From a bacterium (lineage in GTDB: Bacteria; Auribacterota; UBA3054; B51-G9): 29,988 nucleotides of DNA. Both the position numbers and the translations under genes were made by a program. Below are positions 1,274-28,936 of the stretch, piece by piece. The notes beneath the pieces were generated by a model. That model had not been told where the DNA came from. It searched no databases and saw only the letters and a program-made list of their open reading frames with translations. Position 1 is the stretch's first letter. The number at the start of each line of letters is the position of its first letter. Location: the NCBI GenBank assembly GCA_029933535.1, contig JAOZNZ010000003.1, forward strand, positions 1 to 29,988. The letters are read 5' to 3'.

Positions 1274-1344
1274 TAGTGTTCAAGGTGTCAGGTGTCAGGT
1301 TTTAACTAATAACCATTAACTATTAATTATTAAATATTAACTAT
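1274..1344. repeat. Two abutting heptamer arrays: CAGGTGT-type (1281-1302) and TAACTAT-type (1303-1344)
   Basis: CAAGGTGT CAGGTGT CAGGTTT then TAACTAA TAACCAT TAACTAT TAATTAT TAAATAT TAACTAT; fills the sat-mtaB gap and overlaps the sat stop. Confidence 0.85.
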
Positions 1345-2498
1345 TTCACGGAATTAATTAAAATTTCTGCTACTTCCGGTCGAGTAAATTCTTCAGTCAA
1401 AGGTTCTCCTTTATTTAACATTTCAAAAATCTGAGTGTCAGTGTAATAAATATGTTCTTCTATACTATGGGAACATGTTTTTTGCGAAACTATACTTCCA
1501 CATTTCTTACAATATACCATGTTTTCAAATAAAAGAGGGGTTATTTCCATCTCGTGCAACCCGAATTCTTTGAAAATTTCCTGGGCATCGTATGTTCCGT
1601 AATAATTTTTTACTCCTGCGTGATCTCTGCCTACAATAAAATGTGTGCAACCATAATTTTTATGGACAATAGCATGAAAAACCGCCTCTCTTGGCCCGGC
1701 ATATTTAACAGCGGAAGGAAAAACTGAAAGAACGACTCTGTTTTCGGGGTAGTAATTTTCTATTAAAGCATTATAGCTTTTCATACGAACATCAGCGGGA
1801 ACGTTATTTTCTTCTGTTTCACATACTAACGGATGAATAAGCAAGCCGTCACAAATTTCCAAAGCGCATTTTTGAATATATTCATGAGTTCTGTGAATAG
1901 GTCTTTTGGTTTGAAAAGCAACGATTTTTGACCATCCACGCTGTTCAAATTCGTGTCTTGTTTCCAGAGGTGTTAGTCGATATTCATTAAATTGGCTGCG
2001 TTGTGGAGTATTAATCACATCGATATCGCCACCGAGTAATACGTCTCCTCGTTTATTCATTAAGTAATCAACACCAGGATGATCAGTGTTTTTCGTTTTA
2101 TAAACAAAAGCGGCTTCTCTTTCTTTATTAACAATATATTTTTCCTGAAGGTGAAGAATGGCAATTAAATTTTCTTTTTCATCTTTCAAAGCAATTTGAG
2201 CGCCAACATCAAATTCATCAGCCTGATCCGGTGATACACCAAGAACAATCGGAAGTGACCAGGGCAACCCGGAAGTTAATCTCATATGTTCAATAACATG
2301 ATTATAATCATCACGACACATAAAACCTTCAATAGGACTCATAGCTCCGCAAGCTATCATATCGATATCAGAAAGTATTGAATTATCAACAATAACGCTT
2401 GGAAGTTCTTTAGATTTTTTTATCCAAAAGTCTCTTTTTTCTCTTGTAAGAGTACAATTTACGAGTTCCCCGCCGTGTGGCGCAATTTGATTGTGCAT
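1341..2498 (-). CDS. sat: ATP sulfurylase (Sat) family protein with non-canonical active-site motifs
   Basis: PHGGELV start, YAGPREAVFHA, KNYGCTHFIVGRDHAGV, CKKC..TCSH Zn site; QTKRPIHRTH replaces canonical QTRNPxHRAH; SD AAGGAG upstream. Confidence 0.85.
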   Translation of the reverse strand: MHNQIAPHGGELVNCTLTREKRDFWIKKSKELPSVIVDNSILSDIDMIACGAMSPIEGFMCRDDYNHVIEHMRLTSGLPWSLPIVLGVSPDQADEFDVGAQIALKDEKENLIAILHLQEKYIVNKEREAAFVYKTKNTDHPGVDYLMNKRGDVLLGGDIDVINTPQRSQFNEYRLTPLETRHEFEQRGWSKIVAFQTKRPIHRTHEYIQKCALEICDGLLIHPLVCETEENNVPADVRMKSYNALIENYYPENRVVLSVFPSAVKYAGPREAVFHAIVHKNYGCTHFIVGRDHAGVKNYYGTYDAQEIFKEFGLHEMEITPLLFENMVYCKKCGSIVSQKTCSHSIEEHIYYTDTQIFEMLNKGEPLTEEFTRPEVAEILINSVK

Positions 2499-2524
2499 TT
2501 TTTTTGCTCCTTTTTTGAATTTAT

Positions 2525-4096
2525 TTATTTTTGTTCTTCTCTATAATGACATCCTTTACTACGGGCATTGCGAATTGCACCATATAAAACGGCTCTTGCT
2601 GTTTGTAATCCGTTTCTTAATCCTATGATTTCATCGCTCATTGCAACCCGTCGATAAAAAGTTTCTACTTCTGTTTGTAATTCACGTAAAATTCTCTGTG
2701 CTCGTCGTAATCTTCTTTCGCCCCGAATTAAGCCCACATAATTCCACATAGTGTGTCTAATAATCATCCAATCCTGATTTAACAAACTAATATCTACTTC
2801 TTCATTTTTTTCAATCCATGGTGCGATTTTGGGAAAGAAAAATTTTCTTTTTTCACTTACTTTCTTTACTATATCTTTTCCTGTCCATATACCCCAGACA
2901 AGTGCTTCAAGTAAAGATGTACTGGCAAGTCTGTTTGCTCCATGAACTCCTGTACAACTAACTTCACCAACCGCACGCAATCTCGGAACGGAAGTTTGGC
3001 CTAATTTATCAACCATTACTCCTCCGCAGGCATAATGAGCTGCCGGAACGATAGGAATTGGCATTTTAGTAATATCGATTTTATGTTCAAGACATTTTTT
3101 ATAAATTGTAGGAAATCTCTTTTTCAGCCATTCGGCAGGTTTATGTGAAATATCAAGATAAACAAATGACTGGTGATTTTTTTGCATTTCATTATGAATT
3201 GCCCTTGAAACAATATCCCGTGGTGCTAGTGAACCGAGTTTATGATATTTTTTAGCAAATTTTTCTCCATCAGCATTTATTAAAATTCCTCCTTCGCCTC
3301 TTAAAGATTCCGTAATTAAAAAATTATCGGCATCTGTGCCATAAAGAGTTGTAGGATGAAATTGTACAAATTCCATATTCGCAATTCGCGCACTTGCGCG
3401 TAAAGCCATAGCGAAGCCGTCTCCTCTTGATCCTGCACCATTTGTTGTATGAAGGTAAACTTGTCCCAATCCGCCTGTAGCGAGGACTGTTTCTTTTGCG
3501 AGAATTTTAATTGTTTTATGAGGAGTTTGTTTTAAAACATAAGCTCCAACACAAGTAATAGGACGATATGTATCAGCAAAATTTAAAGAATGATGACTTG
3601 TTGTTATTAAATCTATAGCTGTTGTCTTTGTAAAAACAGTTATATTTTTATGCTTCCTTATTTGTTTCCAAAGCGCTTCAGCTATACTTTTACCCGTGCT
3701 GTCAGAACAGTGAATAATTCTTTCTACACTATGCCCGCCTTCCCTGGTTAAGTCAAATTTACCTTTTTTATTTTTATCAAATAATACACCGACTCTATCA
3801 ATCAAAAAACTTTTTACAAGTTTTGGTCCTTCTTTTACAAGATGTCTTACCGCTTCAGGATTACATATTCCGTCTCCTGCGCTTTCAATATCATTAACTA
3901 AAGATTTCTGCGAATCTTTAATTCCTTTATAAATAATTCCGCCCTGTGCACGTGTAGTTGAAGATTTTTCAACATCTTTACCACTTGTCAATATTATTAC
4001 TTTACAACCACTGTCAGCAGCGGTTATTGCGGTAGTGCATCCACCAATACCGGTACCAATAATTAAAATATCTGTTTTAAAAGTTGTTTTCATCAT
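2525..4096 (-). CDS. nadB: L-aspartate oxidase
   Basis: FAD motif IIGTGIGG, AQGGI, TREGGHS..RIIH, QFHPT, TESLRGEG, LAPRDIVSRAI, GVHGANRLAS; start moved from 4183 to ATG 4096 (or 4093) because of the promoter at 4106-4134. Confidence 0.92.
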   Translation of the reverse strand: MMKTTFKTDILIIGTGIGGCTTAITAADSGCKVIILTSGKDVEKSSTTRAQGGIIYKGIKDSQKSLVNDIESAGDGICNPEAVRHLVKEGPKLVKSFLIDRVGVLFDKNKKGKFDLTREGGHSVERIIHCSDSTGKSIAEALWKQIRKHKNITVFTKTTAIDLITTSHHSLNFADTYRPITCVGAYVLKQTPHKTIKILAKETVLATGGLGQVYLHTTNGAGSRGDGFAMALRASARIANMEFVQFHPTTLYGTDADNFLITESLRGEGGILINADGEKFAKKYHKLGSLAPRDIVSRAIHNEMQKNHQSFVYLDISHKPAEWLKKRFPTIYKKCLEHKIDITKMPIPIVPAAHYACGGVMVDKLGQTSVPRLRAVGEVSCTGVHGANRLASTSLLEALVWGIWTGKDIVKKVSEKRKFFFPKIAPWIEKNEEVDISLLNQDWMIIRHTMWNYVGLIRGERRLRRAQRILRELQTEVETFYRRVAMSDEIIGLRNGLQTARAVLYGAIRNARSKGCHYREEQK

Positions 4097-4105
4097 ACAA
4101 AAATT

Positions 4106-4134
4106 ATTATACAATATAGTGAAATAATCGTCAA
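4106..4134 (-). promoter_or_regulatory. Sigma70-type promoter for nadB
   Basis: TTGACG (4134-4129) - 17 nt - TATAAT (4111-4106) on the minus strand. Confidence 0.65.
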
Positions 4135-6163: not shown

Positions 6164-7255
6164 ATGAAAATAGAATGCCAAACCGCTCTTTTAAGAAACG
6201 CTGTTCAACTTTTGCAGCCGGTATGCCCTCTTAGAACAACTATGCCTATACTTTCAAATTTGTTAGTAAAAGCTTCAGCCGGCCAAATAGAATTAGTAGC
6301 AACTGATCTTGATCTTACTGTAAAAACTAAAATTCCGGCAGATGTTATTGAGGAAGGTGAAACTACAATTCCTGTCCGATTTTTTCTTGACGCGCTTCGT
6401 AAAATGAATTCGGATACTATTGAGCTTTCAGTTGATGAAGCTAATGTATCAACAATTCGTTCCGGAAATAAGGTAAAATGCAGCTTACGTGGAATGGATC
6501 CAAGTAATTTTGCTAATTTTCCTGTAGTTGAAACTGATATTTCAATTGAACTTCCTACAAAAGATCTTGCAACTATGCTTAAATACACAAGCTATGCAGT
6601 TTCAAGAGATGAATCAAAATCTATGCTTAATGGTGTTTGTTTTAATTTCAGTGATGATCTTGATGTTGTCGCAACAGATGGAAAACGTCTTGCGAAATAT
6701 GTTTGTGTTGGAGTGAAACAAGAAAAAGCCATGCAGGTAATAGTTCCTTCAAAATCAATTTCTGTAATTCATCAGATTTTAAATACTGAAGGAACAGCTG
6801 AAATAAAATATACATCTAATCTTATGCAAATAAGCACTTTGAACAGTGTTCTTGTTACAAGACTTGTTGATGAACATTATCCAAATTATAATCAGGTTAT
6901 TCCAAAAAGTTGTCAGGCAATTATTAAAGTTAATAGATTAACATTTCTTAACGCGATAAATCTGGCAACTGTTGTAACGGAAAAAAGTAAACAAGCTGTT
7001 GTAAGATTAAATTTTGAAGATAATAAACTCTCTGTTAACGCAAATACAGCTGAAATAGGTGAAGTAAATGATGTTCTTGAAGTTAAATATGATGGCGAAC
7101 AGGTCGATTTAGCAGTTAATCCGACTTATCTTACCGATGTATGTCAAAATGTTGAATCAGAAGAAATTACAATCGAAATTACTGGCAGCGGCAGCCCTCT
7201 TGTTATTCGTTCCGGTGAAAACTTTCTTTGTATTATAATGCCGATGAGAGTTTGA
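6164..7255 (+). CDS. dnaN: DNA polymerase III beta sliding clamp
   Basis: 363 aa, PILSNLL, ATDLDL, VATDGKRLA, YPNYNQVIP, C-terminal IIMPMRV; AGGAG SD at 6149-6153; follows dnaA. Confidence 0.97.
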   Translation: MKIECQTALLRNAVQLLQPVCPLRTTMPILSNLLVKASAGQIELVATDLDLTVKTKIPADVIEEGETTIPVRFFLDALRKMNSDTIELSVDEANVSTIRSGNKVKCSLRGMDPSNFANFPVVETDISIELPTKDLATMLKYTSYAVSRDESKSMLNGVCFNFSDDLDVVATDGKRLAKYVCVGVKQEKAMQVIVPSKSISVIHQILNTEGTAEIKYTSNLMQISTLNSVLVTRLVDEHYPNYNQVIPKSCQAIIKVNRLTFLNAINLATVVTEKSKQAVVRLNFEDNKLSVNANTAEIGEVNDVLEVKYDGEQVDLAVNPTYLTDVCQNVESEEITIEITGSGSPLVIRSGENFLCIIMPMRV

Positions 7256-7337: not shown

Positions 7338-7362
7338 TCCCACCGACACAGGGTCGGCGGGA
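7338..7362. repeat. GC-rich REP-like hairpin
   Basis: TCCCACCGAC-ACAGG-GTCGGCGGGA, 9/10 paired. Confidence 0.55.
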
Positions 7363-7392
7363 CATTTACCTTTTCGAGCAATCCCTAATTCA

Positions 7393-7447: not shown

Positions 7448-7471
7448 CTTAGTGTCTTGGTGTCTTAGTAT
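7448..7471 (+). repeat. Octamer array CTTAGTGT before the DUF721 gene
   Basis: CTTAGTGT CTTGGTGT CTTAGTAT. Confidence 0.7.
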
Positions 7472-7790: not shown

Positions 7791-7854
7791 TGGAATATTG
7801 GATTAATGGAATGATGGATTAATGGAGTGATGGAGTAATGGAGTGATGGAGTAA
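7791..7854 (+). repeat. Octamer array TGGA(G/T)TRA x8
   Basis: TGGAATAT TGGATTAA TGGAATGA TGGATTAA TGGAGTGA TGGAGTAA TGGAGTGA TGGAGTAA, starting 11 nt after the DUF721 stop. Confidence 0.9.
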
Positions 7855-8020: not shown

Positions 8021-8092
8021 ATTCGTGTTAATTTGTGTCCATTAGTGGTAAAAAATATTATTTAATCCGTGATAATCCGTGAAATTCGTGTC
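8021..8092 (+). repeat. Two 9-10-mer arrays of the ATTCGTG/ATCCGTG type
   Basis: ATTCGTGTTA ATTTGTGTCC ATTAGTGGTA (8021-8050); AATCCGTGAT AATCCGTGA AATTCGTGTC (8064-8092), overlapping the next start codon. Confidence 0.7.
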
Positions 8093-10664
8093 AAAAATAT
8101 TTTTATTTCTTCTTTTTATTTTTTCAGCAAATATTTTTGCTTTGAATTTAAATGAAAATTCTATTACCGGGAAAACAGCTTCAGCATTAAATTACGCATT
8201 TAAAAATCTTGGTATTTCCCGTAGAAGTCTTGGATTTGAAAAAGCCTGGTATAAAGATGAATTCCGTCTGCCAATTCAGGAAAAATGTCTTGCAGATCCT
8301 GTTTTTCCAATTGAAATGAGTGATAAACTGATTTCTAATATTGATAATTTATCCCCTCTACAAATTATTTCTGAAATTACATCTGTTCCTTACTCAGAAA
8401 AAAATTCAACTAATTCAATTGAAAATCTGATTCAAATCCGCGAAAAATTATTTGTTTTTTTTCAAAAATATCAAAACAAAAAACTTTATAATTATTTGAT
8501 TTTTAATTTTAGTAACGTTAAAGAAAAAAGAAACGAATTCGATAATCTTATTAATGCAGGCGCAAATAAACAAATTATTAATAATTTGATTAATCAAGCT
8601 GATAATTATTTACTTCAGGAAGAAAATATTAATCAATATATTTTTACTGAATTATCAAATTTTTCAGTTTCTCAATGTATTTCCTATGTTTATGAAGTTA
8701 TTAATAATGCAAACAAAATAACTTTTGATGATAAATTTATAAAATTAAAAGATGATTTTATAAAAAAAGGTATCCAAATAGGTTCTTATGGCAGAGATGT
8801 TTATACAAATAAAAATACGTGGCTTATTATTGATCCGGGGGGCGATGATATTTATGATAATTTATCAGGTTTTGCTTCAATTGAAATTAATCAACCACTA
8901 AAAATTATTATTGATTTTGACGGCGATGATGTTTATAAAAATGATTTTTCTTTTGGCGCAGCTTGCGGTATTTTTGGAATAAGTGTTTTAATTGATAAAA
9001 ATGGAAATGATAGTTATAAAAATGGATCTATGGCTCAGGGAGCAGGATTGGGTGGAGTAGGAATTTTAATGGATTCTAATGGTGATGATTTTTATTCTGC
9101 TGATAATTATTCCCAGGGCGCGGGATTTTTTGGACTTGGTGCGCTTATTGATAATAACGGTAATGATAATTTTAATGTTAGTTCTTATGGTCAGGCTATT
9201 GGCTTTACAAAAGGTTATGGTTTTTTAATTGATAATAATGGAAATGATATTTATTATGCCGGAGGTGTTTATCCGGATATCGGAAGATATGATAATAATT
9301 ATATTTCTATGAGCCAGGGAATAGGTATTGGTAAACGTCCTTTTGCTTCCGGGGGTATTGGAACCCTAATTGATAAAAACGGGAATGATACATATATTGC
9401 TGATGTTTTCGGTCAGGGATCTGCTTATTGGTTTGGGTTAGGTATGCTGATCGATAAACGTGGTCAGGATACTTACAATTTATATGAATATGGACAAGGT
9501 GCAGGTATTCACATGGGTTGCGGGATTCTTGCTGATGGAGAAGGTAATGATGTCTATACTTTGAAAGGTGGAATTGGTCAGGGAGCCGAACATGATTTTT
9601 CGGTTGGTCTTCTTAGAGACTATTCAGGAAATGATAAGTATAATGGAAATATTACCGTTCAGGGAGGAGCAATAAATAACGGCGTTTCTTTCTTAATTGA
9701 TGATAAAGGCAATGATTGGTACAGTTCCTGGAGCAATATTTCTCATGGTGATGGAGAATGGGCTGAAAGGCGAGATTTTGGTTCTATAGGATTTTTACTT
9801 GATTTATCCGGAAAAGATAAGTATGGAATAAAAGAAACAAATAATTTTAAAAAAATAAACGGCTTAATAGGCATTTGTGTTGATTTCCCCACTAATTTTA
9901 TCTATACAAATAAAATTAATTTAATTAATAAAAAATTAGCAATAAATAAATTTGAAAACTGCTACCCTTATTCACTTAAATATAAATCACCCAAAATTGA
10001 AAATGTTAATTTTGAAAGATTATATCGAATGGCTATTGAATCTTCATATTCAAAAGAAAAAAATATATTATCAGAAAAAGCTGTAAATAAATTAAAACAA
10101 CTCGGACCAAAAATTATTCCTTTACTCGCTAAAAAAATCGAACATCCGTGTAATCAAAGCAGTTATGCAATTCAGAATATAATTATGTCGTGGAAAACTA
10201 ATGCAATTCCAATGTTACTGGAAGCATATAATTCAACAACAAATCAACGGGTTAAACGTGTATTAATATATTTTATGGGATTAAATCGTGACAACAGAAT
10301 TGAACCTGCTGCAGTTAAAGAATTAAATGATAATAAAAACAGATCAATAGCTTTGTGGGCACTTGGAAATTGTGGAGTTACTCAATCAATTGAATATGCA
10401 GAAAAATATTTATTTGAAGGTGAAACTGAAATGACACGTGTCCGCAGCGCGGGAATTTTAAGAAAAGTAGGTTCAACGAATGAAACAGCTATGTTGGTTG
10501 ATATTTTGAAATTACCGGATGATAATATGTGGAATTTAAAATGTGCAGCGGTTAAAGCATTGGAAAAGCAAAGCAATACGGTTATTTCAGTAATAAAAGA
10601 AGAGTGGGAAGAATTACCTGAAGACTCGAAAGCACTGATAAACAGTGTTTTTAAGGTAAATTAA
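8079..10664 (+). CDS. Large secreted hypothetical protein with 12 LxDxxGxDxY repeats and a C-terminal HEAT-like helical region
   Basis: Signal peptide-like MKFVSKIFLFLLFIFSANIFA; repeats such as VLIDKNGNDSY, FLIDNNGNDIY, TLIDKNGNDTY; C-terminal RSIALWALGNCG and VRSAGILRKVG. Confidence 0.75.
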   Translation: MKFVSKIFLFLLFIFSANIFALNLNENSITGKTASALNYAFKNLGISRRSLGFEKAWYKDEFRLPIQEKCLADPVFPIEMSDKLISNIDNLSPLQIISEITSVPYSEKNSTNSIENLIQIREKLFVFFQKYQNKKLYNYLIFNFSNVKEKRNEFDNLINAGANKQIINNLINQADNYLLQEENINQYIFTELSNFSVSQCISYVYEVINNANKITFDDKFIKLKDDFIKKGIQIGSYGRDVYTNKNTWLIIDPGGDDIYDNLSGFASIEINQPLKIIIDFDGDDVYKNDFSFGAACGIFGISVLIDKNGNDSYKNGSMAQGAGLGGVGILMDSNGDDFYSADNYSQGAGFFGLGALIDNNGNDNFNVSSYGQAIGFTKGYGFLIDNNGNDIYYAGGVYPDIGRYDNNYISMSQGIGIGKRPFASGGIGTLIDKNGNDTYIADVFGQGSAYWFGLGMLIDKRGQDTYNLYEYGQGAGIHMGCGILADGEGNDVYTLKGGIGQGAEHDFSVGLLRDYSGNDKYNGNITVQGGAINNGVSFLIDDKGNDWYSSWSNISHGDGEWAERRDFGSIGFLLDLSGKDKYGIKETNNFKKINGLIGICVDFPTNFIYTNKINLINKKLAINKFENCYPYSLKYKSPKIENVNFERLYRMAIESSYSKEKNILSEKAVNKLKQLGPKIIPLLAKKIEHPCNQSSYAIQNIIMSWKTNAIPMLLEAYNSTTNQRVKRVLIYFMGLNRDNRIEPAAVKELNDNKNRSIALWALGNCGVTQSIEYAEKYLFEGETEMTRVRSAGILRKVGSTNETAMLVDILKLPDDNMWNLKCAAVKALEKQSNTVISVIKEEWEELPEDSKALINSVFKVN

Positions 10665-10688
10665 GCTCTTGACCGGCGCATGCCGAGT

Positions 10689-10764
10689 CTCCCTTTATTA
10701 AAGGGAGTACCCGCAATAGCGGGGGAGGGATTTAAATCCCCCTAACCCCCTTTAGGAAAGGGGG
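10689..10764. repeat. Head-to-head pair of REP-like palindromic units (BIME-like)
   Basis: Hairpins CTCCCTTT-ATT-AAAGGGAG, CCCGC-AATA-GCGGG, GGGATTTAAATCCC, CCCCCTTT-AGG-AAAGGGGG between convergent genes. Confidence 0.7.
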
Positions 10765-10771
10765 AATCGAT

Positions 10772-10794
10772 AAGTTTGCCTGTCAGGCAAACTT
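10772..10794. terminator. Probable bidirectional terminator
   Basis: Perfect inverted repeat AAGTTTGCCTG-T-CAGGCAAACTT between convergent genes. Confidence 0.6.
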
Positions 10795-10803
10795 TTGCTT
10801 TGA

Positions 10804-11229
10804 TTACTCTTCAGCTATTTCAATTCCTTTATCTTTTAAAAATGTCCCGAATTCCAGATCTACTACACAAATATGTTTGACAAGCCAATTAATTAACAGA
10901 GTATCAATTGAATCGGCAAGTTGATGTGTAGCCCCGTCTTCAGTAAAATAATCTACTAAATCGTTTAATGTTGTTTTGAACTCATCATGTTTTAATTTTT
11001 GATGTTCAAGACCGGGATAATTAGTTTCACTCATATGTTTTTCTTCGGCAGAAAAATGATAATTAGTATATTCAATCAAAAAATCAAGTGTTTTAACAAT
11101 TTGATTAACGCTATGATGTGATTCTATAGCATTTGTCAGGTCGTTAAGATGTTGTATAAGCAATTTATGCTGTTCATCAACTAATTCAACACCAATAGAC
11201 ATATCATCGGTCCATAGTATTTTTTTCAT
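10804..11229 (-). CDS. Bacteriohemerythrin-like protein
   Basis: W...MSIGV..VDEQH, YTNYHFSAEE, YP..EHQKLKH, WLVKHICVVD. Confidence 0.9.
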   Translation of the reverse strand: MKKILWTDDMSIGVELVDEQHKLLIQHLNDLTNAIESHHSVNQIVKTLDFLIEYTNYHFSAEEKHMSETNYPGLEHQKLKHDEFKTTLNDLVDYFTEDGATHQLADSIDTLLINWLVKHICVVDLEFGTFLKDKGIEIAEE

Positions 11230-11997: not shown

Positions 11998-12705
11998 TTA
12001 TTCTATGGCTGCGAATTTTTTTACATCGTTTTCTTTACCTGCAACGACGAGAATATCATCTTTTTCAAAAATATCTTCAGGAGAGAAAGTTAAAAGAAAA
12101 TTTCTAATTTCTTCTTTATCGTTGTCATTATCAGTTTCTTGTTTTTTGTTTTCTATAAGCCTTCTGATTCCTATGACATTTATACCATATCTTGAGCGAA
12201 CTCTCAAATCATAAATATTTTTACCAATAAAACTTTCAGGTACTTTTAATTCAGCAATTGCCGCGTTATCAGATAAAGGAATAAGTTCTGTAAGTCCCGG
12301 TGTGGCAATTTTTTGAGCTGTTCGCAATCCCATTTCCTTTTCAGGATTTACTACTTCGTCAGCTCCAACAACTTTAAGGATTCTGGCGTGTAAGTCTGTT
12401 GAAGCTCTTGCAATAATTCTTGTTACACCGAGTTGTTTTAGTAAAGCGGTAGTAAGAATATTATTTTGAATATTATTGTCACCAATTGCACAAATGACAG
12501 TATCTATTTCTTCAATTCTCGCTTCGCGCAAAGCAGATTCGTTTGTACTGTTAAAAGACAACGCATTGTCAACATCTTTGCTGATATCCTGAACAAGATT
12601 ACGATTTATATCAATAGCGAGTACCGGGAAATGATGTTGTGATAGCCATAAGGCCACTTCTGTTCCAAAACGTCCGAGACCGATAACTGCGAATTTTTTG
12701 CTCAT
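11998..12705 (-). CDS. ktrA: KtrA/TrkA-family K+ uptake regulatory RCK subunit
   Basis: FAVIGLGRFG, VLAIDIN, IIARAS...HARILKVVGADEVVNPEKEMG, RCK_C domain; SD AAGGAG. Confidence 0.9.
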   Translation of the reverse strand: MSKKFAVIGLGRFGTEVALWLSQHHFPVLAIDINRNLVQDISKDVDNALSFNSTNESALREARIEEIDTVICAIGDNNIQNNILTTALLKQLGVTRIIARASTDLHARILKVVGADEVVNPEKEMGLRTAQKIATPGLTELIPLSDNAAIAELKVPESFIGKNIYDLRVRSRYGINVIGIRRLIENKKQETDNDNDKEEIRNFLLTFSPEDIFEKDDILVVAGKENDVKKFAAIE

Positions 12706-12745: not shown

Positions 12746-12843
12746 AGCCACAAAGTCACAAAGCCACAAAAAGAAAAGACTCATGATAATTAGTGTAATT
12801 AATATCAAAAAAATTATATTCATATTTTTAGTGCCTTAGTGGC
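12746..12843. repeat. Inverted pair of octamer arrays around a 57-nt AT-rich spacer
   Basis: AGCCACAA AGTCACAA AGCCACAA (12746-12769) and TTTAGTGC CTTAGTGGC (12827-12843); 13/16 complementary. Confidence 0.75.
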
Positions 12844-14945: not shown

Positions 14946-14986
14946 TAACACATATTATACAAAAAAATATAAAATTATAACAGAAT

Positions 14987-16425: not shown

Positions 16426-16488
16426 TATGAATGCGGGAATGGGAAATATGGGAATCATATCTTCCAACCTTCCAACTTTCCAACCTTA
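16426..16488. repeat. GGGAAT-type degenerate array plus CTTCCAAC octamer array abutting the methyltransferase stop
   Basis: GGGAAT GGGAAATAT GGGAATCAT; CTTCCAAC CTTCCAAC TTTCCAAC (16461-16484). Confidence 0.75.
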
Positions 16489-17373
16489 TTTCAAGTTACA
16501 AGCTTTTGAAATCTCTTGAATGTGTTCCGGTGTTGTTCCGCAACAACCGCCAATCATATTTGCGCCAGCATTTATAAGTTCGGGAATTTTTACCGCCATT
16601 TCTTCCGGAGTGGCAGGAAAAACAGTTTCGCCGTTAATAAGTTGTGGAACCCCTGCGTTAGGACGAGCCCAGATAGGTTTATCGGTAAATTTGCGTAATT
16701 CTTTTACAACTTCAATCATATTTTCAATTCCATTACCACAATTTGTGCCGATAATATCAGCTCCGGCAGCGTCAAAATGTGTTGCAGCCTGTTCCGGAGT
16801 AACGCCCATCATTGTAGCGTATCCATTAAGGCCTTTGTCAAAAGTAATAGAGACAGCAACCGGCAAATCAGGAGCGACAGATTTTGCTGCACGTAACGCG
16901 CAGGAAGCTTCTTCTATATCGGTCATAGTTTCGATAATAATACCATCGGCTCCGCCATTTTCAAGTGCGAGAATTTGTTCAGCGAAAGCTTTTTCCATTT
17001 CCTCTTTAGAAATGAGGCCGAGGGGCTGAAGAAATTCGCCTGTAGGGCCAACAGACGCGAAGACGTATGTATTATTATCCACGGCATTTTTAGAAATTTC
17101 GGCGCCTTTTTTATTAATTTCAGCAATTTTATCTCCAAGACCGGATTTTTCAAGTTTAAATTTATTACCGCCAAAAGTATTTGTAATAACTATTATTGCA
17201 CCGTTGTCAGCATAAGATTTTGGTATTTCCGCGACTTTATCAGGGAAATCAAGGTTCCATTTTTCCGGAGTTTCACCCGGAGGAAGGCCGCGTCTTGAAA
17301 GTTCGGTACCCCAGGCACCATCGAGAGGAATAACGGGATAAATTTCGAACAATTTTTCTAATAATCTATTCAT
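16486..17373 (-). CDS. Homocysteine S-methyltransferase family protein (stand-alone MetH N-terminal-like domain)
   Basis: LDGAWGTEL, TNTFGGN, ASVGPTG, IIETM, Zn ligands GTNC and IGGCCGTTPEHI. Confidence 0.9.
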   Translation of the reverse strand: MNRLLEKLFEIYPVIPLDGAWGTELSRRGLPPGETPEKWNLDFPDKVAEIPKSYADNGAIIVITNTFGGNKFKLEKSGLGDKIAEINKKGAEISKNAVDNNTYVFASVGPTGEFLQPLGLISKEEMEKAFAEQILALENGGADGIIIETMTDIEEASCALRAAKSVAPDLPVAVSITFDKGLNGYATMMGVTPEQAATHFDAAGADIIGTNCGNGIENMIEVVKELRKFTDKPIWARPNAGVPQLINGETVFPATPEEMAVKIPELINAGANMIGGCCGTTPEHIQEISKACNLK

Positions 17374-19386: not shown

Positions 19387-19398
19387 CAGCGATAATAA

Positions 19399-19488
19399 TG
19401 AATTAATGGATTAGTGGATTAATGGATTGATGTTCTCAACCTTCCAACCTTCCAACCTTCCAACCTTCCAACCTTTTAACCTTCTAAC
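19399..19488 (+). repeat. Two abutting octamer arrays filling the ptsI-leuS gap
   Basis: TGAATTAA TGGATTAG TGGATTAA TGGATTGA (19399-19430); TTCTCAAC CTTCCAAC x4 CTTTTAAC CTTCTAAC (19433-19488). Confidence 0.9.
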
Positions 19489-19495: not shown

Positions 19496-21970
19496 ATGGA
19501 ATCTAAGTACAATCACCTAGAAATAGAACCTAAATGGCAACAAAAATGGCTCGATAAAAATGCCTTTGCTGCTGAAGATAATAATAAAACAAAAAAACCG
19601 GTCTATGTTCTCGATATGTTCCCTTATCCGTCTGGCGCAGGGCTACATGTCGGTCACCCGGAAGGTTACACCGCAACTGACATTTTTTGTCGATATCTCA
19701 GAATGGCGGATTTTAATGTCCTTCATCCTATGGGATGGGATGCGTTTGGCCTGCCTGCGGAGAATTATGCAATAGAGACGGGAACTCAACCAAGAGTTTC
19801 CACTGATAAAAACATTGCGCGTTTTAAAGAGCAAATTCAATCCCTTGGTTTCTCTTACGACTGGGACAGAGAAATTGATACAACTGACCCGGAATATTTT
19901 AAATGGACACAATGGATTTTTCTTCAGCTTTTCAAAAAAAACCTTGCTTATGAAGCTGAAATCCCGGTTAACTGGTGCCCGAAATTGAAAACTGTTCTCG
20001 CTAACGAAGAAGTTATTAACGGAAAGTCCGAACGTGGCGGTCATCCGGTTATTAAAAAACCTATGCGGCAGTGGATGCTTAAAATTACAGCTTATGCTGA
20101 AGAGTTACTTAATGATTTAGAACTTGTTGATTGGTCAGAACCAATTAAATTAATGCAGAGAAATTGGATTGGAAAATCCATCGGCGCGGATGTTGATTTT
20201 AGTATTCAGGTGTCAGGTGTCAGGTGTCAGAAGACAGAGGTCGGAGAACAGAGTTCAGAGTTCAGAGTTCAGGAAAAAGATACGGACCACGATCTTAATA
20301 TTCAAGTTTATACAACACGTCCTGATACACTTTTCGGTGCAACGTACATGGTTCTTTCTCCGGAACATCCTCTTGTTGATAAAATTACAACAGAAGAGCA
20401 GAAAGCAGCTGTAAAAAAATATCAGGAAACCGCATCTCACAAATCAGATCTTGAACGCACGGATCTTGCAAAAGACAAAACCGGTGTTTTTACCGGTGCT
20501 TATGCTATAAATCCGGCTAATCAAAAAGAAATTCCTGTGTGGATTTCCGATTACGTTTTAATGAGTTACGGTACCGGTGCGATAATGTCGGTTCCCGGCC
20601 ATGATCAACGCGACTATGAGTTTGCTAAAAAGTTTAATTTACCGATTATCCAGGTTATTTCCGGTGGGAATATTGAAAAAGAAGCACATGAAGGAGATGG
20701 AGAGCTGATAAATTCAGATTTTCTCAACGGCCTTTACGTTAAAGATTCTAAAAAGAAAATGACAGAATGGCTTGAAGAAAAAAATCTCGGAAAATATACC
20801 GTAAATTATAAACTTCACGATTGGGTTTTCTCGCGACAACGTTATTGGGGTGAACCTATTCCAATTATCCATTGCGAAAAATGCGGGCTTGTTCCCGTTC
20901 CGGAAGATCAGCTCCCCGTTACTTTGCCCGAAGTCGAAAAATACGAACCTACAGGAACAGGAGAATCTCCGCTTGCTAATATTGATGAATGGGTAAACAC
21001 AACCTGTCCGGAATGCGGTGGCGTGGCTAAACGCGAAACCAATACTATGCCTCAATGGGCCGGCTCAAGCTGGTATTATCTTCGCTATGCCGATCCGCAT
21101 AACAACAAAAGATTAATTAATCCTGAAAAAGAAAAATACTGGTTACCTGTTGATGTTTATGTTGGCGGCGCTGAGCACGCGGTATTGCATCTTTTGTATG
21201 CGAGATTCTGGCATAAAGTCCTCTATGATATTGGTGCTGTTTCTTCAAAAGAACCTTTCATAAAATTGCATAACCAGGGAATGATTCTCGGCGAAGACGG
21301 CGAAAAAATGAGTAAATCCCGCGGGAATGTTATCAACCCCGATGATGTTGTTAAAGAATACGGCGCGGATTCGCTCCGTCTTTACGAAATGTTCCTGGGA
21401 CCGCTTGAACAGCAGAAACCCTGGAATACGCACGGTGTTGAAGGCGTTTACAGGTTTTTACAAAAAGTATGGCGGCTGACTCAACATGAACTTGCTGAAA
21501 AACAGGATGCAGATTTAGAAAAAGCACGTCATAAAATGATAAAAAAAGTTACCGAAGATATTAAAAATTTTCGATTTAATACCGCTATCAGCGCAATGAT
21601 GATTTTCACAAATGAAGCGCAAAGTAAAAGCGCGACTCGCGAAGATATTGAAGCATTATTGAAATGTCTTTCTCCTTTCGCGCCGCATTTAGCCGAAGAA
21701 ATCTGGCAGAAATTTGGACATGAGGACTTAATTTGTTCAACAAAATGGCCAGCTTACGATGAATCAAAAACTATTGATAAAACAATTCAAATTGTTATTC
21801 AGGTCAATGGAAAACTACGCTCGAAATTAGTTTCTGAACTCAACGCGGACAAAAACGGTCTTCTTAAAATGGCGAAAGAGGATGAACACGTCCAAAAATG
21901 GCTTGAAGGAAAAACAATTATCAAAGAAATTTTTGTACCGAATAGATTAATAAATTTTGTCGTGAAGTAA
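19496..21970 (+). CDS. leuS: Leucine--tRNA ligase with 21-aa repeat-derived insertion
   Basis: [14 protein letters not shown] (HIGH), [51 protein letters not shown]; start moved from 19427 to ATG 19496. Confidence 0.97.
20207..20269 (+). repeat. Nine heptamers (63 nt) in frame within leuS
   Basis: CAGGTGT x3, CAGAAGA, CAGAGGT, CGGAGAA, CAGAGTT x3. Confidence 0.9.
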
Positions 21971-21981: not shown

Positions 21982-22050
21982 CACATAAGGAACATAAGGA
22001 ACATAAGAAAATATAAATATTTATTTTAAAAACCGTAAAAACCGTAAAAA
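21982..22050 (+). repeat. Two 9-mer arrays after leuS
   Basis: CACATAAGG AACATAAGG AACATAAGA (21982-22008); AAAAACCGT x2 AAAAA (22028-22050). Confidence 0.75.
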
Positions 22051-22058
22051 CAAAAATT

Positions 22059-22379
22059 ATGAATGAAAAATATTTCCCATTTATTTTTTTTACGGTAATG
22101 ATATTAATGTTTGTTAATTTTTATCATCGTTTCTTAAAATTAAGAAATTTACTAAGAAAACACCACAAACCAGTATCAAATATTTTATGGGGTTTGGGGT
22201 TAGCCAGGGATATAAAACAAGCGAAACTGTTAATCAAAGAACTTGAAGATTCACAAGAAATTAAAGAAGTTAAAACAGCATTAATACAAACTAACATAGC
22301 TTATTTAATGATTTTTGTAATATTTTTTACTTTAGGTGCACTGCTTTTAATGTCTCCAAATATAAAATTTTCTTTTTGA
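22059..22379 (+). CDS. Small hypothetical membrane protein, two predicted TM helices
   Basis: Hydrophobic segments YFPFIFFTVMILMFVNF and IAYLMIFVIFFTLGALLLM. Confidence 0.6.
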   Translation: MNEKYFPFIFFTVMILMFVNFYHRFLKLRNLLRKHHKPVSNILWGLGLARDIKQAKLLIKELEDSQEIKEVKTALIQTNIAYLMIFVIFFTLGALLLMSPNIKFSF

Positions 22380-22401
22380 ACCACAACTTCAAATATCAGA
22401 T

Positions 22402-22449
22402 TTGACTTTATGCATAAAAAATGTTATTATTATGTATAGCTAATACATA
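22402..22449 (+). promoter_or_regulatory. vapBC promoter with palindromic operators
   Basis: TTGACT (22402-22407) - 17 nt - TATTAT (22425-22430); palindromes TTATGCATAA (22408-22417) and TATGTAT-5-ATACATA (22431-22449). Confidence 0.7.
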
Positions 22450-22463
22450 AAAGGAAGCATATT

Positions 22464-22664
22464 ATGAGAACAACAATCGATTTAGATGATGCAATTATTA
22501 AAGCCGCTATGAAAGTTACCGGCGCTAAAACAAAAAAAGAAGTCGTTCACCTGGCGCTTGATGAACTGGTACGTAAACAGCGTCAGGAAAATATGACAAA
22601 ATTACGGGGAACATTTCCCGATATGTTGACGGTATCTAATCTTCAAAAACTTCGCGCACAATAA
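22464..22664 (+). CDS. vapB: VapB-type antitoxin (ribbon-helix-helix, DUF2191-like)
   Basis: MRTTIDLDD...AMKVTG.KTKKEVV..AL.ELVR; TAATG overlap with the PIN gene. Confidence 0.85.
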   Translation: MRTTIDLDDAIIKAAMKVTGAKTKKEVVHLALDELVRKQRQENMTKLRGTFPDMLTVSNLQKLRAQ

Positions 22665-23041
22665 TGATTACTCTCATTGACACCTCTGCGTGGATAGAAT
22701 ATCTGCGACCTCATGGCAACAGTGCCGTTGCTGATACTGTTGAGGAAGTTTTACTAACAGGCAACGCCGGTTTATGTCCGTTAATTGAATTAGAGCTTCG
22801 TGTAGGTTCGCGCAGCAAAACTGAAGACAAGCAACTTTCAGAATTATTTAATTCTTTAATCCAATTACCGATGTCTGATAAAGTGTGGAATTATGCTTAT
22901 CATTTATCTACTACACTGAGAAGAAACGGACATACTATTCCGGCAACCGATATTGCAATTTATTCTTGTGCGAAAGTTAATAACGCAAAATTACTTGCAA
23001 ACGACAAACATTATTTGTTGATAGCAAATAACATAAAATAA
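22664..23041 (+). CDS. vapC: PIN-domain VapC toxin
   Basis: LIDTSAWIEYLR, ELEL, IPATDIAI, LLANDKHY. Confidence 0.9.
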   Translation: MITLIDTSAWIEYLRPHGNSAVADTVEEVLLTGNAGLCPLIELELRVGSRSKTEDKQLSELFNSLIQLPMSDKVWNYAYHLSTTLRRNGHTIPATDIAIYSCAKVNNAKLLANDKHYLLIANNIK

Positions 23042-23117: not shown

Positions 23118-23140
23118 TAATCCAATAATCCAATAATCCC
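23118..23140 (+). repeat. TAATCCAA octamer array before rph (reverse complement of the TGGATTA family)
   Basis: TAATCCAA TAATCCAA TAATCCC, ending 7 nt before the ATG. Confidence 0.75.
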
Positions 23141-23147: not shown

Positions 23148-23918
23148 ATGACACAAATAAAAAATTTAAAAGATCTTGAAATTGATATTGCAAGAAATGA
23201 CGGTAGAAAAGAAGACCAGCTTCGCGAAATTAAAATTACTCCAAACTATATCAAAAACGCGACAGGAAGCGTTTTGATTGAAGCCGGAAACACTCGCGTT
23301 GTGTGCGTTGCATCAATCGAAAACAAAATCCCGAGATGGATGATGCAGCAAGGCATCAGAAAACAAGGATGGATTACCGCTGAATATAATATGCTGCCAT
23401 ATGCAGGCGGGCAAAGAAAAATGCGTGAATCAACTATGGGGAAAGTTTCCGGCAGAACTCAGGAAATTCAACGACTCATCGGTAGATCTTTTCGCGCGGT
23501 AGTTGATTTGAAAGCTCTTGGCGAGCGGACAATTTGGATTGACTGCGATGTTCTTGAAGCTGATGGAGGAACAAGAACGGCATCAATCACCGGAGCTTAT
23601 GTTGCGCTATCATTGGCGATAAAAAAGTTACAGAAAAAAAATATTATTAAAGGTAATCCACTTAAGCAGCAAGTTGCAGCTATTTCTGTTGGGATTGTTG
23701 ATGGAAAAGCTCTATTGGATTTGGATTATAGTGAAGATTTTGCCGCGGAAGTTGATTTTAACGTCGTTATGACCGATTCCGGCGAATTTATTGAAGTGCA
23801 GGGTACAGCTGAAGAAAAACCTTTTACCGGCGATCAACTTTCACAGATGCTTAAATTAGCTGAGAAAGGCTGTAAAGAAATTTTTGAATTGCAGAAATCC
23901 GTGATCTGTAATCCGTAA
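23148..23918 (+). CDS. rph: Ribonuclease PH
   Basis: [63 protein letters not shown]. Confidence 0.97.
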
Positions 23919-23959
23919 TCCGTGGTCCGATTAACAATTAACGAATAACTAATAAAGAA
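23897..23959 (+). repeat. Continuous period-7 array overlapping the rph C-terminus
   Basis: ATCCGTG ATCTGTA ATCCGTA ATCCGTG GTCCGAT then TAACAAT TAACGAA TAACTAA TAAAGAA. Confidence 0.8.
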
Positions 23960-23991
23960 CAACTTTAATTGACCCAACAAACGAAAAACGA

Positions 23992-25212: not shown

Positions 25213-25213
25213 T

Positions 25214-25241
25214 AAACAAATAACGATTAACAAATAACAAC
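25214..25241 (+). repeat. TAACNAW heptamer array before lysA
   Basis: AAACAAA TAACGAT TAACAAA TAACAAC, ending 2 nt before the ATG. Confidence 0.7.
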
Positions 25242-25243
25242 TC

Positions 25244-26526: not shown

Positions 26527-26547
26527 TTAATCAACATAAAAACTAAG

Positions 26548-26790
26548 ATGAATATTTTAAATACAAAAGAATTAAGAAATCAACTGTCTGAAATTGTAAA
26601 ACGCACAAAACGCGGTGAGCAATTTACTATTCTTTATCGTAGCAAACCTGCTTTTCGCATAGTTCCTGTTATGCCAACAGTCGAAGAAAACATTAAAGTA
26701 AAAAAAGACTCTCTTTATAAAATGAAAGCATTGGGAGCATCTAATGACAGTTTAACCGCGGCTGATCATGATTCGGTCTTATATGGGTAA
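26548..26790 (+). CDS. Phd/YefM-type antitoxin
   Basis: NTKELRNQLSEIV.R.KRGE..TI.YRSKP.F.IVP; start moved from TTG 26521 to ATG 26548, downstream of the promoter. Confidence 0.8.
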   Translation: MNILNTKELRNQLSEIVKRTKRGEQFTILYRSKPAFRIVPVMPTVEENIKVKKDSLYKMKALGASNDSLTAADHDSVLYG

Positions 26791-26792
26791 TT

Positions 26793-27209
26793 ATGAAAGC
26801 AATTTTTGTTGATACAGCGGGCTGGATGTTATTATCAGATTCAAACGATCCTTTTTATTTGAAAGGAACTGAATTTCGTGATAAATGGTTAAATAAAGGT
26901 GGAATTTTTGTTACAACAGATTATGTGGTAGATGAAACTTTAACTTTATTGCGAACAAGACTTAATCTTATTGCTGCTGAAAAATGGTGGCAGGCTGTAT
27001 CCAATAGTTCCCGAATTAGCTGGGAATATATTAATAGTGTCAGATCGGAAGAAGCAAGAGCGTTATTTTTTGGATGGCGCGACCAAAAGTTTTCTTTTAC
27101 TGATTGTACCAGTTTTGTTGTAATGCGGGAATTAGGAATTGATAAAGCATTAACTTCAGACAAGCATTTTGTTCGTGCAGGATTTACATTAGTGCCTGGG
27201 AAAGGTTGA
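26793..27209 (+). CDS. vapC: PIN-domain VapC toxin
   Basis: IFVDTAGW, TTDYVVDETLTLL, FSFTDCTSFVVM, ALTSDKHF..AGF. Confidence 0.9.
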   Translation: MKAIFVDTAGWMLLSDSNDPFYLKGTEFRDKWLNKGGIFVTTDYVVDETLTLLRTRLNLIAAEKWWQAVSNSSRISWEYINSVRSEEARALFFGWRDQKFSFTDCTSFVVMRELGIDKALTSDKHFVRAGFTLVPGKG

Positions 27210-27229
27210 ATTGCATTGTGTAACAAAAC

Positions 27230-27270: not shown

Positions 27271-27295
27271 TATTAATCTTAAAATATAATAAACA

Positions 27296-27908: not shown

Positions 27909-28744
27909 AATTAAATTTTACTAAAATGCACGGTTGCGGAAACGATTTCGTCGTTATTGACGCAACAACCAATTTGAAGAATTGGCAGCCTTCAGTTAAC
28001 GAAGCCGCTTTTCTGCTCGATAGACATTTCGGTATTGGTGGAGATCAACTGCTTGTTATATACCCTTCGGAAGTTGCTGATATGAAAATGGTAATTTTTA
28101 ATCCGGATGGTGGTGAAGTAGAAATGTGCGGTAACGGAATTCGTTGTTGTGCACTTTATGCAAAAAATCATAAGCTTGTTGATAAAAATGAAATGACTGT
28201 TGAAACGCTTGCGGGAATAATTAAACCCGTAATAGAAGATGAATGTGTTTGTGTTGATATGGGAGAACCGAAACTTTCTGCTTCAGAAATACCTGTTACA
28301 GGTTATTCCGGGAAAATAATTAATGCTGAACCACCTGAAATTGAAAGTGATTTTCCTTTGCCGCTGATGAATTGTGTATCCATGGGAAATCCTCACACGA
28401 TTTTCTTTGTTGATGACATTAACGCTGTTCCGCTTGAGGAAATCGGCAAAAAAGTCGAAAACAGTCCTGTTTTTCCAAATAAAACAAATGTTGAATTTGC
28501 ACAGATTTTAGACGTCAAAACTATAAAAATGCGCGTTTGGGAGCGCGGAGCAGGAATAACTCTTGCATGTGGAACAGGAGCTTGTGGCACAGTAGTTGCC
28601 GGTATTCTTTCGGGCAGGATTGAAAATGAGGCAACAGTAATACTTGACGGTGGAGAACTAAATATTTCCTGGCAGGGAGAAGGAACGTCTGTTTTCATGA
28701 CAGGACCTGCAGAAGAAGTATTCAGCGGAGAGCTGGAAAAGTAG
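27905..28744 (+). CDS. dapF: Diaminopimelate epimerase
   Basis: FTKMHGCGNDF, EMCGNGIRC, SMGNPH, TNVEF, VWERGAGITLACGTGAC; ATGA overlap with the toxin stop. Confidence 0.97.
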   Translation: MKLNFTKMHGCGNDFVVIDATTNLKNWQPSVNEAAFLLDRHFGIGGDQLLVIYPSEVADMKMVIFNPDGGEVEMCGNGIRCCALYAKNHKLVDKNEMTVETLAGIIKPVIEDECVCVDMGEPKLSASEIPVTGYSGKIINAEPPEIESDFPLPLMNCVSMGNPHTIFFVDDINAVPLEEIGKKVENSPVFPNKTNVEFAQILDVKTIKMRVWERGAGITLACGTGACGTVVAGILSGRIENEATVILDGGELNISWQGEGTSVFMTGPAEEVFSGELEK

Positions 28745-28754
28745 CACAAACACC

Positions 28755-28852
28755 GGGGTATTGGAATGGAGGGACGCTGTTCTCAGCGTCCTAAATGGAG
28801 TAATGGAGTAATGGAATAATGGGAAACCATAAAAATCCATTGTCCCAACCCC
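28755..28852. repeat. AATGGAGT array interrupted by a GC hairpin, with a degenerate inverted arm
   Basis: GGGGTATTGGAATGGA, GGACGCTG-TTCT-CAGCGTCC, AATGGAGT x2 AATGGAAT AATGGGAA, then TCCATTGTCCCAACCCC. Confidence 0.7.
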
Positions 28853-28901
28853 TAATATATTGCAAAATTGCGTTTTTGAACCTTAAATTCGCGACAGCGA
28901 A

Positions 28902-28936
28902 CAACCTTGCAACCTTGCAACCTTACAACTTTGAAC
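28902..28936 (+). repeat. CAACCTTG octamer array before the ABC ATPase gene
   Basis: CAACCTTG CAACCTTG CAACCTTA CAACTTTG AAC. Confidence 0.8.

Follow-up and report, generated by a model that had tools for sequence, protein, structure and literature searches.

The window analysed here, a stretch of 29,988 nt that makes up the whole of contig C20 of a fragmented metagenome-assembled genome (MAG; G000), holds about 20 short tandem-repeat arrays at its gene junctions, as called with Tandem Repeats Finder (TRF). The arrays belong to the class of repeats known as short tandemly repeated repetitive (STRR) sequences or long simple sequence repeats. We lean towards the reading that the arrays of the window are fast-evolving members of this class, which were born by slippage and are oriented by selection on translation signals. 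Elsewhere in the same genome, most genes of the S23p family (PF05635) lie in the stems of matched inverted arrays. The S23p module is a real and related system that may be causal; that it is the main source of the arrays we regard as possible but unlikely. In cyanobacteria, Xanthomonas, giant sulfur bacteria and many uncultured phyla, heptamer-type repeats form a sizeable share of the non-coding DNA, and no accepted explanation exists for either their origin or their strict polarity.

Abundance and polarity of the arrays

The genome comprises 1046 contigs totalling 4.49 Mb, with 79% completeness and a GC content of 38%. Overlapping TRF calls were merged, and junction roles were assigned from open reading frames (ORFs) and dicodon-based gene calls. 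The initial annotation, made from the letters of the window, had placed arrays at most gene junctions, and each array that it named was recovered by TRF at its place. Genome-wide there are 4856 merged arrays, among which periods of 7 (1460), 9 (894), 8 (735) and 10 (393) dominate. They occupy 3.4% of the genome and ~10% of its intergenic bases; 78% of array bases are non-coding, compared with 15.5% of the genome. In real intergenic DNA, 2062 arrays have a period of 7-10 and 2.5 or more copies, versus 41-56 in shuffled or third-order-Markov intergenic DNA, a 40-50-fold excess. The units fall into 1336 families with a long tail, the commonest being ACACCTG/CAGGTGT (181 arrays) and AACTATT (122). 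About 11% of the contig ends of this MAG fall inside arrays, which fragment assemblies and can leave ORF calls lengthened or cut at both ends.

Polarity was scored as the leave-one-out agreement of unit orientation, read outward from the nearest gene end. Agreement was 660:166 overall, rose to 304:34 within 10 nt of a gene end and was ~50:50 beyond 120 nt, so that the proposal of a non-random, polarised arrangement was borne out. The outward orientation of a unit is identical at starts and at stops, and it holds in all four junction types. At co-directional junctions the sense strand carries more G than C in arrays nearer the stop and more C than G in arrays nearer the start. The annotation had also noted one family acting in both roles as reverse complements, and this is seen genome-wide. 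AATAGTT lies in sense after stops in a ratio of 47:3 and its complement before starts in a ratio of 21:4; the corresponding ratios for CAGGTGT and its complement are 26:12 and 34:5, and NACCTAATT 9-mers likewise swap strand between the stop and start roles.

Among the matches listed from other phyla, (CAGGTGT)n arrays have the same polarity, 31:9 at starts and 20:7 at stops, when arrays are masked before ORF calling. These listed loci also hold other 7-10-nt arrays at a density like that of G000. In viral contigs (CAGGTGT)n gave 2 matches, versus 0, 2 and 1 for composition-matched controls.

Sequence rules for leader and trailer arrays

Shine-Dalgarno (SD) use is low in this genome, with an SD-like 4-mer at positions -20 to -4 in 26% of all genes, and this share is 8.5% where an array abuts the start. 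An array lies within 15 nt of the start in 365 genes (~13%). In leader arrays, defined as those at most 30 nt from a start, GG was found in sense in 6 cases versus antisense in 93, SD-like motifs in 9 versus 85, and start codons (ATG/GTG/TTG) in 35 versus 108. The mean folding energy of the region from -60 to +20 was -5.6 kcal/mol in the native state and -10.0 kcal/mol with the array flipped (p 3e-20), compared with -9.0 kcal/mol for array-free leaders. The orientation found in leaders thus removes SD-like motifs, start codons and structure, which predicts a measurable cost when an array is flipped.

Trailer arrays follow a different pattern. Stop codons are present in sense only in 143 trailer arrays versus antisense only in 41, with ratios of 125:34 for TGA and 91:35 for TAA; genome-wide, genes end in TAA (59%), TGA (25%) or TAG (16%). 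The bias persists 3-40 nt past the stop (82:34) and in GC-neutral units (17:5). An excess of G over C was discarded as the trailer rule, as it is not significant among stop-neutral units (66:53). Dimers of the form YC (pyrimidine followed by C) are scarce in sense trailers (84:169). Together with the presence of a Rho gene in the genome, this depletion makes it possible that trailers avoid Rho loading within operons. Many trailer units carry GGA. General base composition near genes was rejected as the cause of the skew because non-array DNA there is far less skewed.

Arrays of the window

The arrays called in the window are as follows, with the copy number after each unit.

1283-1300, no strand assigned: AGGTGTC x2.6, 16 nt 5' of the start of the minus-strand gene 2-1267, in the sense of which it reads GACACCT
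1302-1345, no strand assigned: TTAACTA x6.3, degenerate, overlapping the stop of the minus-strand gene 1341-2498; in sense TAGTTAA, rich in stop codons
7255-7291, plus strand: AAGGTTGA x4.6, the first unit including the dnaN TGA stop (7253-7255)
7448-7469, plus strand: CTTAGTGT x2.8, 16 nt 5' of the dciA ATG (7486)
7791-7854, plus strand: TGGAGTAA/TGGATTAA x8, equal to a 16-nt super-unit x4, 12 nt 3' of the dciA stop
8063-8090, plus strand: TAATCCGTGA x2.9, 5' of an ORF of 840-861 aa; degenerate counterpart in G001
12746-12770, no strand assigned: AGCCACAA x3.1, between the start of 11998-12705 (minus strand) and the stop of 12873-14951 (minus strand)
16461-16487, no strand assigned: CTTCCAAC x3.4, overlapping the stop of the minus-strand gene 16486-17373; in sense GTTGGAAG
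19396-19432, plus strand: TAATGGAT x4.6, 10 nt 3' of the ptsI stop
19437-19488, plus strand: CAACCTTC x6.5, G-free, ending 8 nt 5' of the leuS ATG (19496)
20206-20272, plus strand: TCAGGTG x3.6 and CAGAGTT x3.4, in frame within leuS as a variable surface-loop insertion
21983-22007, plus strand: ACATAAGGA x2.8, 13 nt 3' of the leuS stop
22027-22051, plus strand: TAAAAACCG x2.8, 5' of the 106-aa ORF 22059-22379 (no Pfam family)
23118-23139, plus strand: TAATCCAA x2.8, G-free, ending 9 nt 5' of the rph ATG
23896-23923, plus strand: AATCCGT x4, including the rph TAA stop (23916-23918)
23928-23963, plus strand: CGAATAA x5.1, degenerate, 3' of rph
25215-25240, plus strand: AACAAAT x3.7, G-poor, filling the 31-nt gap between an AAA ATPase gene and lysA
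28794-28822, plus strand: AATGGAGT x3.6, abutting a hairpin like the repetitive extragenic palindromic (REP) sequences, 50 nt 3' of the dapF stop
28902-28933, plus strand: CAACCTTG x4, ending 14 nt 5' of the lolD ATG

Several of these arrays contain the stop of the gene that precedes them, as is the case for dnaN, rph and the two minus-strand genes at 1341 and 16486; at leuS, rph, lysA, lolD and dciA an array ends 3-16 nt before the start. Because the CAACCTTC array is free of G up to 8 nt from the leuS ATG, it leaves no room for an SD sequence. Two assignments of the initial annotation had to be revised. The array at 12746-12770 had been taken for a ktrA leader, but in the sense of both minus-strand genes it reads TTGTGGCT and is thus G-rich, which fits an after-stop role for gene 12873-14951. 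The array at the end of rph had been set apart as an exception to the polarity, but it supplies the TAA stop of rph itself.

Turnover between strains and species

An identical DciA protein is encoded in nine independent assemblies. Across ~27 kb of aligned DNA with 99-100% identity, the single indel is a 16-nt deletion, equal to two units, in the 7791-7854 array. Contigs with an identical rph or lolD protein showed unchanged junction lengths and no further variants. Phase-variable contingency loci were set aside, as there is one length variant in ~27 kb among nine assemblies and the arrays flank the housekeeping genes dnaN, dciA, ptsI, leuS, rph, lysA, dapF and lolD.

Comparison with the congeners G001, G002 and G003, at 79-93% identity, gave a picture of rapid replacement. 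At the dnaN-dciA, dciA-next-gene and ptsI-leuS junctions, the arrays of these species belong to different unit families. A different 9-mer array replaces the AAGGTTGA array at the dnaN end in G001, the 7791-7854 array is not found in G001, and the TAATGGAT array is missing from the ptsI-leuS junction of all three congeners. A G-free array before the leuS start is kept in all four species (G001, G002, G003 and the window), each with a different one. Before rph, G002 has AATCCATT x4.1 in place of TAATCCAA, and the AATCCGT array at the rph end is not in G002. The array between the AAA ATPase gene and lysA is expanded from a proto-repeat that is single-copy in G002, and the dapF-lolD spacer measures 202 nt in the window versus a 4-nt gap in G002. 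Within leuS, which was also compared with G006 and G007, the window has 25 aa more in this loop than G001, G006 and G007, where the insert is missing, and the insert of G003 extends by 21 nt (three heptamers) beyond the version of the window.

Arrays are thus born in place from local proto-repeats, change in length by whole units, up or down, and swap families between species, and they survive almost solely between genes or in frame in tolerant loops. Unit-step change, in-place birth and replacement between species are expected from in-place slippage filtered by selection. The view of the initial annotation that the arrays were not products of slippage therefore fails as regards their origin. 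Two other modes of origin were examined and rejected. Growth at one tip would leave a gradient of purity outward from the gene; no significant difference in mismatch load per unit was seen between the half nearer the gene and the distal half (69 vs 91 arrays, p 0.10). Conserved flanks like those of miniature inverted-repeat transposable elements were not seen, as the sequences on either side of CAGGTGT arrays are unrelated and the arrays pass gradually into other unit families.

S23p genes in the stems of inverted arrays

A search of the genome with PF05635 gave 14 matches, 12 of them above the cut-off, and one was confirmed by hmmscan at 69.9 bits. PF05635 resembles Avd, the accessory protein of diversity-generating retroelements (PMC10053308). 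Ten of the 12 genes above the cut-off lie between long matched inverted arrays, for example CAGGTGT x24 with ACACCTG x12, or TGGAGTAC x11.5 with ACTCCATC x10. In the predicted fold (z = -2.55) the arms pair as the outermost stem, of 20 bp, which encloses the S23p ORF. The same arrangement was found at 4 of 5 loci in relatives and at 5 of 5 loci in a Lentisphaerae, two Planctomycetota and a deltaproteobacterial MAG, genomes that were chosen for having arrays. The literature searched held no report linking PF05635 to these repeats.

The cassettes are gained and lost among congeners. That on contig C157 is missing from G001, G002 and G003, with flanks 94% identical in G003, and that on C145 is present in G003 and missing from G001 and G002. 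The cassettes on C145, C157 and C194 lie between protein-coding flanks that are conserved in congeners, and not in 23S rRNA. The initial annotation had suggested that similar arms flank small cassette genes in other anaerobe genomes, and for the S23p genes of this genome the suggestion holds, with filled and empty orthologous junctions among congeners. The empty junctions hold other unit families rather than the same arms minus the cargo; at the C145 site, G001 and G002 have other matched inverted pairs, built of different units.

The left arm of each cassette has the orientation in which its family is found outward from genes genome-wide (47:6, 23:0, 7:0 and 8:3). S23p genes and arrays also occur together across genomes. 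Both are found in families f1, f3, f4 and f5, and neither occurs in the small-genome family f2 or in G020; array-rich genomes have 6-21 S23p copies, nine f2 genomes have none, and the sampled DNA of f2 and f8 holds no arrays. Among control genomes, 1 of 14 has PF05635.

Two of the S23p genes (C722:14822-15193 and C872:4945-5163) are flanked instead by repeated hairpin units of ~24 nt that begin with TTAAGGTT, a second kind of arm.

Origin of the arrays and cause of their polarity

The reading that we favour would run as follows. Slippage in place would make arrays from local proto-repeats and change them by whole units. In an organism with low SD use, purifying selection on translation signals would keep the orientation that gives an inert, unstructured leader before a start, and would likewise keep a stop-bearing, YC-poor trailer after a stop. 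The window arrays would then be spacers shaped by such selection, and the handedness of inverted-arm modules may be a second source of polarity.

Its strongest competitor is the S23p module itself. All or most arrays would be arms or decayed arms of S23p (Avd-like) inverted-arm modules that are mobile or self-propagating, and polarity would be the handedness of the module. The 5' arm would adjoin the left gene and the 3' arm the right gene, regardless of the direction of module or genes, solitary arrays would be remnants of modules that had lost their cargo or one arm, and S23p or a partner enzyme may make or spread the repeats. Such a module has the same arm order in either direction of insertion and would therefore give the start/stop geometry without any selection. 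The architecture at the S23p loci, its outermost stem, its presence and absence among congeners, the agreement in arm orientation, which extends to a C-rich family, and the co-occurrence across genomes all speak for this account, as does the frequency of inverted partners within an array's own junction (23% versus 12% in control junctions). The remaining 77% of arrays have no inverted partner, and none in the window has one. Arrays outnumber S23p genes by ~300 to 1, arrays are demonstrably born in place and inside genes, and empty junctions lack cargo-less arms. No recombinase, reverse transcriptase or other enzyme was tied to the cassettes, and neither a reverse transcriptase nor a template/variable repeat pair was seen next to them. 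Related genomes do not count as independent cases of co-occurrence, and those of other phyla were picked for their arrays. We regard the S23p account as a minority possibility to be taken seriously, and prefer slippage with selection for the window arrays in view of the ratio of arrays to S23p genes, the share of arrays without a partner and the births in place.

A wider form of the S23p account has the S23p gene in its inverted-array stem as a mobile module that occurs across phyla and makes, spreads or maintains repeats of the STRR class, with solitary arrays as orphaned arms or targets created in trans. We regard it as possible but rather doubtful. Were it true, the S23p module would provide a molecular origin and a candidate protein for a class of repeats unexplained since 1990, and its geometry would explain why the repeats face starts and stops alike. 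The occurrence of same-handed repeats around a mobile Avd-like gene in several phyla in any case names a candidate protein partner.

Several observations weigh against slippage and selection as the sufficient account of the window arrays. The gene starts came from our own ORF and dicodon caller and are not curated; adding back the arrays absorbed into called 5' ends moves the tally of leaders to 18:101 at most, so the leader result is not overturned. Among trailers, TAG is unbiased (75:78), and the stop-codon rule is hence one of TGA and TAA. RNA structure was rejected as the cause of trailer polarity, since flipping trailer arrays leaves the folding energy unchanged. Because adjacent non-array DNA is much less skewed, either the filter acts on arrays specifically or something else orients them. 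The 9-mer family AACCTAATT lies in sense after stops in a ratio of 22:0 and is C-rich on its outward strand, with stops in both orientations, and selection on G/C or on stops does not account for its orientation. This orientation is that of the left arm of an S23p cassette, where the genome-wide agreement is 23:0. At one cassette junction, three congeners each have their own, different matched inverted pair, which argues for modules rather than independent arrays.

The arrays might instead be binding sites of a protein, such as ribosomal protein S1, a cold-shock protein or a CsrA-like protein, within a post-transcriptional network. The position of arrays close to the starts of 365 genes, where the ribosome binds, and the GGA of trailer units would suit such a protein, and there are precedents, one a hypothesis (PMC4679880) and one reporting effects of heptamers on expression in Nostoc (bioRxiv 10.1101/2022.06.06.494920). 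A sequence-specific regulon needs conserved sites, and the turnover of families counts against it: there are more than 1300 distinct unit families, and orthologous junctions swap family between close species and keep composition alone. The flanked genes are moreover unrelated housekeeping genes. We consider this explanation improbable.

Still less probable, in our view, is that the arrays are neutral by-products of a slippage-prone state of replication or repair, with the polarity an artefact of gene calling. Indels in steps of a unit, in-place births and the spread of the class through many phyla would all follow from it. The polarity, however, survives both the masking of arrays before ORF calling and the add-back of arrays absorbed into ORFs, is specific to families, reaching 47:3, and has been reported independently on annotated genomes (PMC4692102). 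The family ratios, the agreement near gene ends and the masking and add-back results already go most of the way to refuting this reading.

Tests for cassettes in the window and around ordinary genes

The initial annotation had read the arrays as left and right arms of a system that inserts and excises gene cassettes. This applies to the S23p genes elsewhere in the genome, but not to the window nor to genes in general. No complementary or identical array pairs were found at window junctions. Among genes with arrays at both ends, 7 of 78 have matching arms in a strict test; a looser test gave 22 of 158, and 17 of 141 for large genes (>170 aa), near the ~12% of control junctions. The alternative suggestion, that the two arrays at one junction pair as RNA, likewise fails as a general rule, with an inverted partner for 23% of arrays versus 12% in control junctions.

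Gene content does differ between G002 and the window. The first of the Phd/YefM-type toxin-antitoxin (TA) modules between lysA and dapF, at 26548-27209, is missing in G002, which has a 142-nt gap there. In place of the block from leuS to rph that comprises the 106-aa ORF and VapBC (22059-23041, with VapBC at 22464-23041), G002 has another block of two genes. Neither the TA module nor the leuS-rph block is bounded by matching arrays, so the predicted contrast of filled and empty junctions is seen for the S23p cassettes on C157 and C145 but not for the TA differences of the window. The AAA ATPase gene between rph and lysA, which seems to be bracketed by arrays, is in the same place in G002 without them. 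No recombinase family is among the Pfam matches listed for window genes, integrase families not having been searched for. We infer that the window arrays are not recombination arms. A general insertion/excision system for ordinary genes is scarcely credible: the polarity resembles that of paired arms and some junctions differ in gene content between congeners, but arms seldom match, the variable TA modules are not array-bounded, no recombinase is among those matches and the flanked genes include essential single-copy ones (dnaN, leuS, rph and lysA).

Relation to known repeats

STRR heptamers of heterocystous cyanobacteria were reportedly described by Mazel and colleagues in 1990. The link to cyanobacterial STRR that the initial annotation drew proved sound, as the arrays belong to the same class by period, excess, dispersal, turnover and polarity. 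In common with STRR and with the long simple sequence repeats of Mrazek et al. 2007, as the latter are summarised in PMC4679880, they have short tandem units with heptamers commonest and many dispersed, mostly intergenic copies, their function is unexplained and slippage has been proposed. They differ in lineage and unit sequences. As to named sub-families, TAACTGA x3 occurs once, the top families are other words and the STRR1-3 words were not searched for; the arrays are thus placed in the class and not in these sub-families.

The polarity is shared with the GGGAATC / GGGGA(C/T)T heptamers of Xanthomonas and Nostoc. In these (Rehm et al. 2015, PMC4692102) the G-rich strand is antisense where the repeat stands up to 50 bp before an ORF and sense where it stands up to 50 bp behind a stop, and the closest ORF is on the 5' side of the repeat in whichever direction that ORF runs. 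The present arrays share the dispersed intergenic tandem heptamers, the variation of length and sequence at the same junctions of close species and the polarity. They differ in that their units have at most one GG and cannot form G-quadruplexes (a candidate discarded here because the units lack runs of G), in that periods 8, 9 and 10 are nearly as common as 7, and in having more than 1300 unit families, some of them C-rich on the outward strand, compared with one dominant motif. The repeat class and its polarity are accordingly already known. What this genome adds is the lineage, the wide range of periods and families, the numerical tie of leader orientation to the avoidance of SD motifs, start codons and structure, and the S23p genes in stems of these repeats, gained and lost among congeners and found in G000 and five other lineages.

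TAACTGA direct repeats occur in marine Beggiatoaceae, cyanobacteria and some Bacteroidetes, and a role in post-transcriptional regulation has been proposed for them (MacGregor 2015, PMC4679880). Like the leader arrays here, they are heptamer arrays directly before start codons, in one orientation, that replace the SD region (PMC4679880). In Flexibacter litoralis their orientation is reversed after the stop, which hints at the same polarity (PMC4679880). The Guaymas 'Maribeggiatoa' (BOGUAY, PMC4679880) came from hydrothermal sea-floor sediment, and the window is present in sequencing runs labelled as metagenomes of marine sediment, hydrothermal vent or sediment. The present genome differs in having one TAACTGA array of at least 3 copies, many families, and trailer arrays as common as leader arrays.

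The S23p cassettes resemble 23S rRNA intervening sequences, in which a PF05635 ORF of ~120-150 aa likewise lies in the loop of a long inverted-repeat stem, but they stand between protein-coding genes and their stem is made of tandem 7-9-nt units. They also recall integron cassettes with attC in being small promoterless genes between imperfect inverted structures, present or absent among relatives. Unlike integron cassettes, they were seen with no integrase or attI (integrase families were not searched for), their arms are variable tandem arrays and not attC, and they are scattered singly among housekeeping genes with one family of cargo.

A REP-like hairpin and other features

The array at 28794-28822 abuts a second kind of repeat.

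28768-28793, plus strand: copy of a REP-like hairpin, composed of GGAG, an 8-bp stem, the loop TYCY (TCCC/TCCT), the stem complement and TA(A)

This hairpin has 64-82 copies genome-wide, which favour the sense orientation after stops by 38:6. Compensatory changes distinguish its stem variants, with 45-49 copies of GGACGCTG, 6-15 of GGTCGCCG and 7-8 of GGACGTTG, and a single mismatch is found in 5 copies only. It often lies inside arrays of the TGGAGTAA type, the unit of which equals the two flanks of the hairpin joined. As a dispersed 26-nt hairpin with compensatory stems, mostly after stops, in a genome with 11 matches to Y1_Tnp (PF01797), it resembles REP sequences and bacterial interspersed mosaic elements (BIMEs) with their REP-associated tyrosine (Y1) transposases (RAYTs); the likeness covers the hairpin alone and not the tandem arrays, and no RAYT is shown to be flanked by hairpins. 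The Y1_Tnp matches (on contigs C713, C733 and C426, for example) are not tied to arrays, cassettes or hairpins. They are numerous in large-genome relatives and nearly missing from family f2. Y1 transposases were rejected as the partner enzyme, as their distribution does not separate the array families and no linkage was seen.

Several different GC-rich hairpins, resembling a BIME cluster, fill the convergent spacer at 10664-10804 of the window, which holds no tandem arrays. A dispersed repeat of ~50 nt at 7341-7392, distinct from the tandem arrays, has copies of 85-95% identity on at least 6 other contigs (C905, C130, C410, C305, C157 and C791). No Rfam match was obtained within the window. 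In a relative of the same order, L184:55-633 (G005:C1) holds a repeat of period 61 that is like clustered regularly interspaced short palindromic repeats (CRISPR), with 29-nt repeats and 32-nt spacers. The 840-aa ORF 3' of dciA (8142-10664) matches no Pfam family above the cut-off, with a weak HEAT_2 match only, and it varies more than its neighbours among the nine assemblies.

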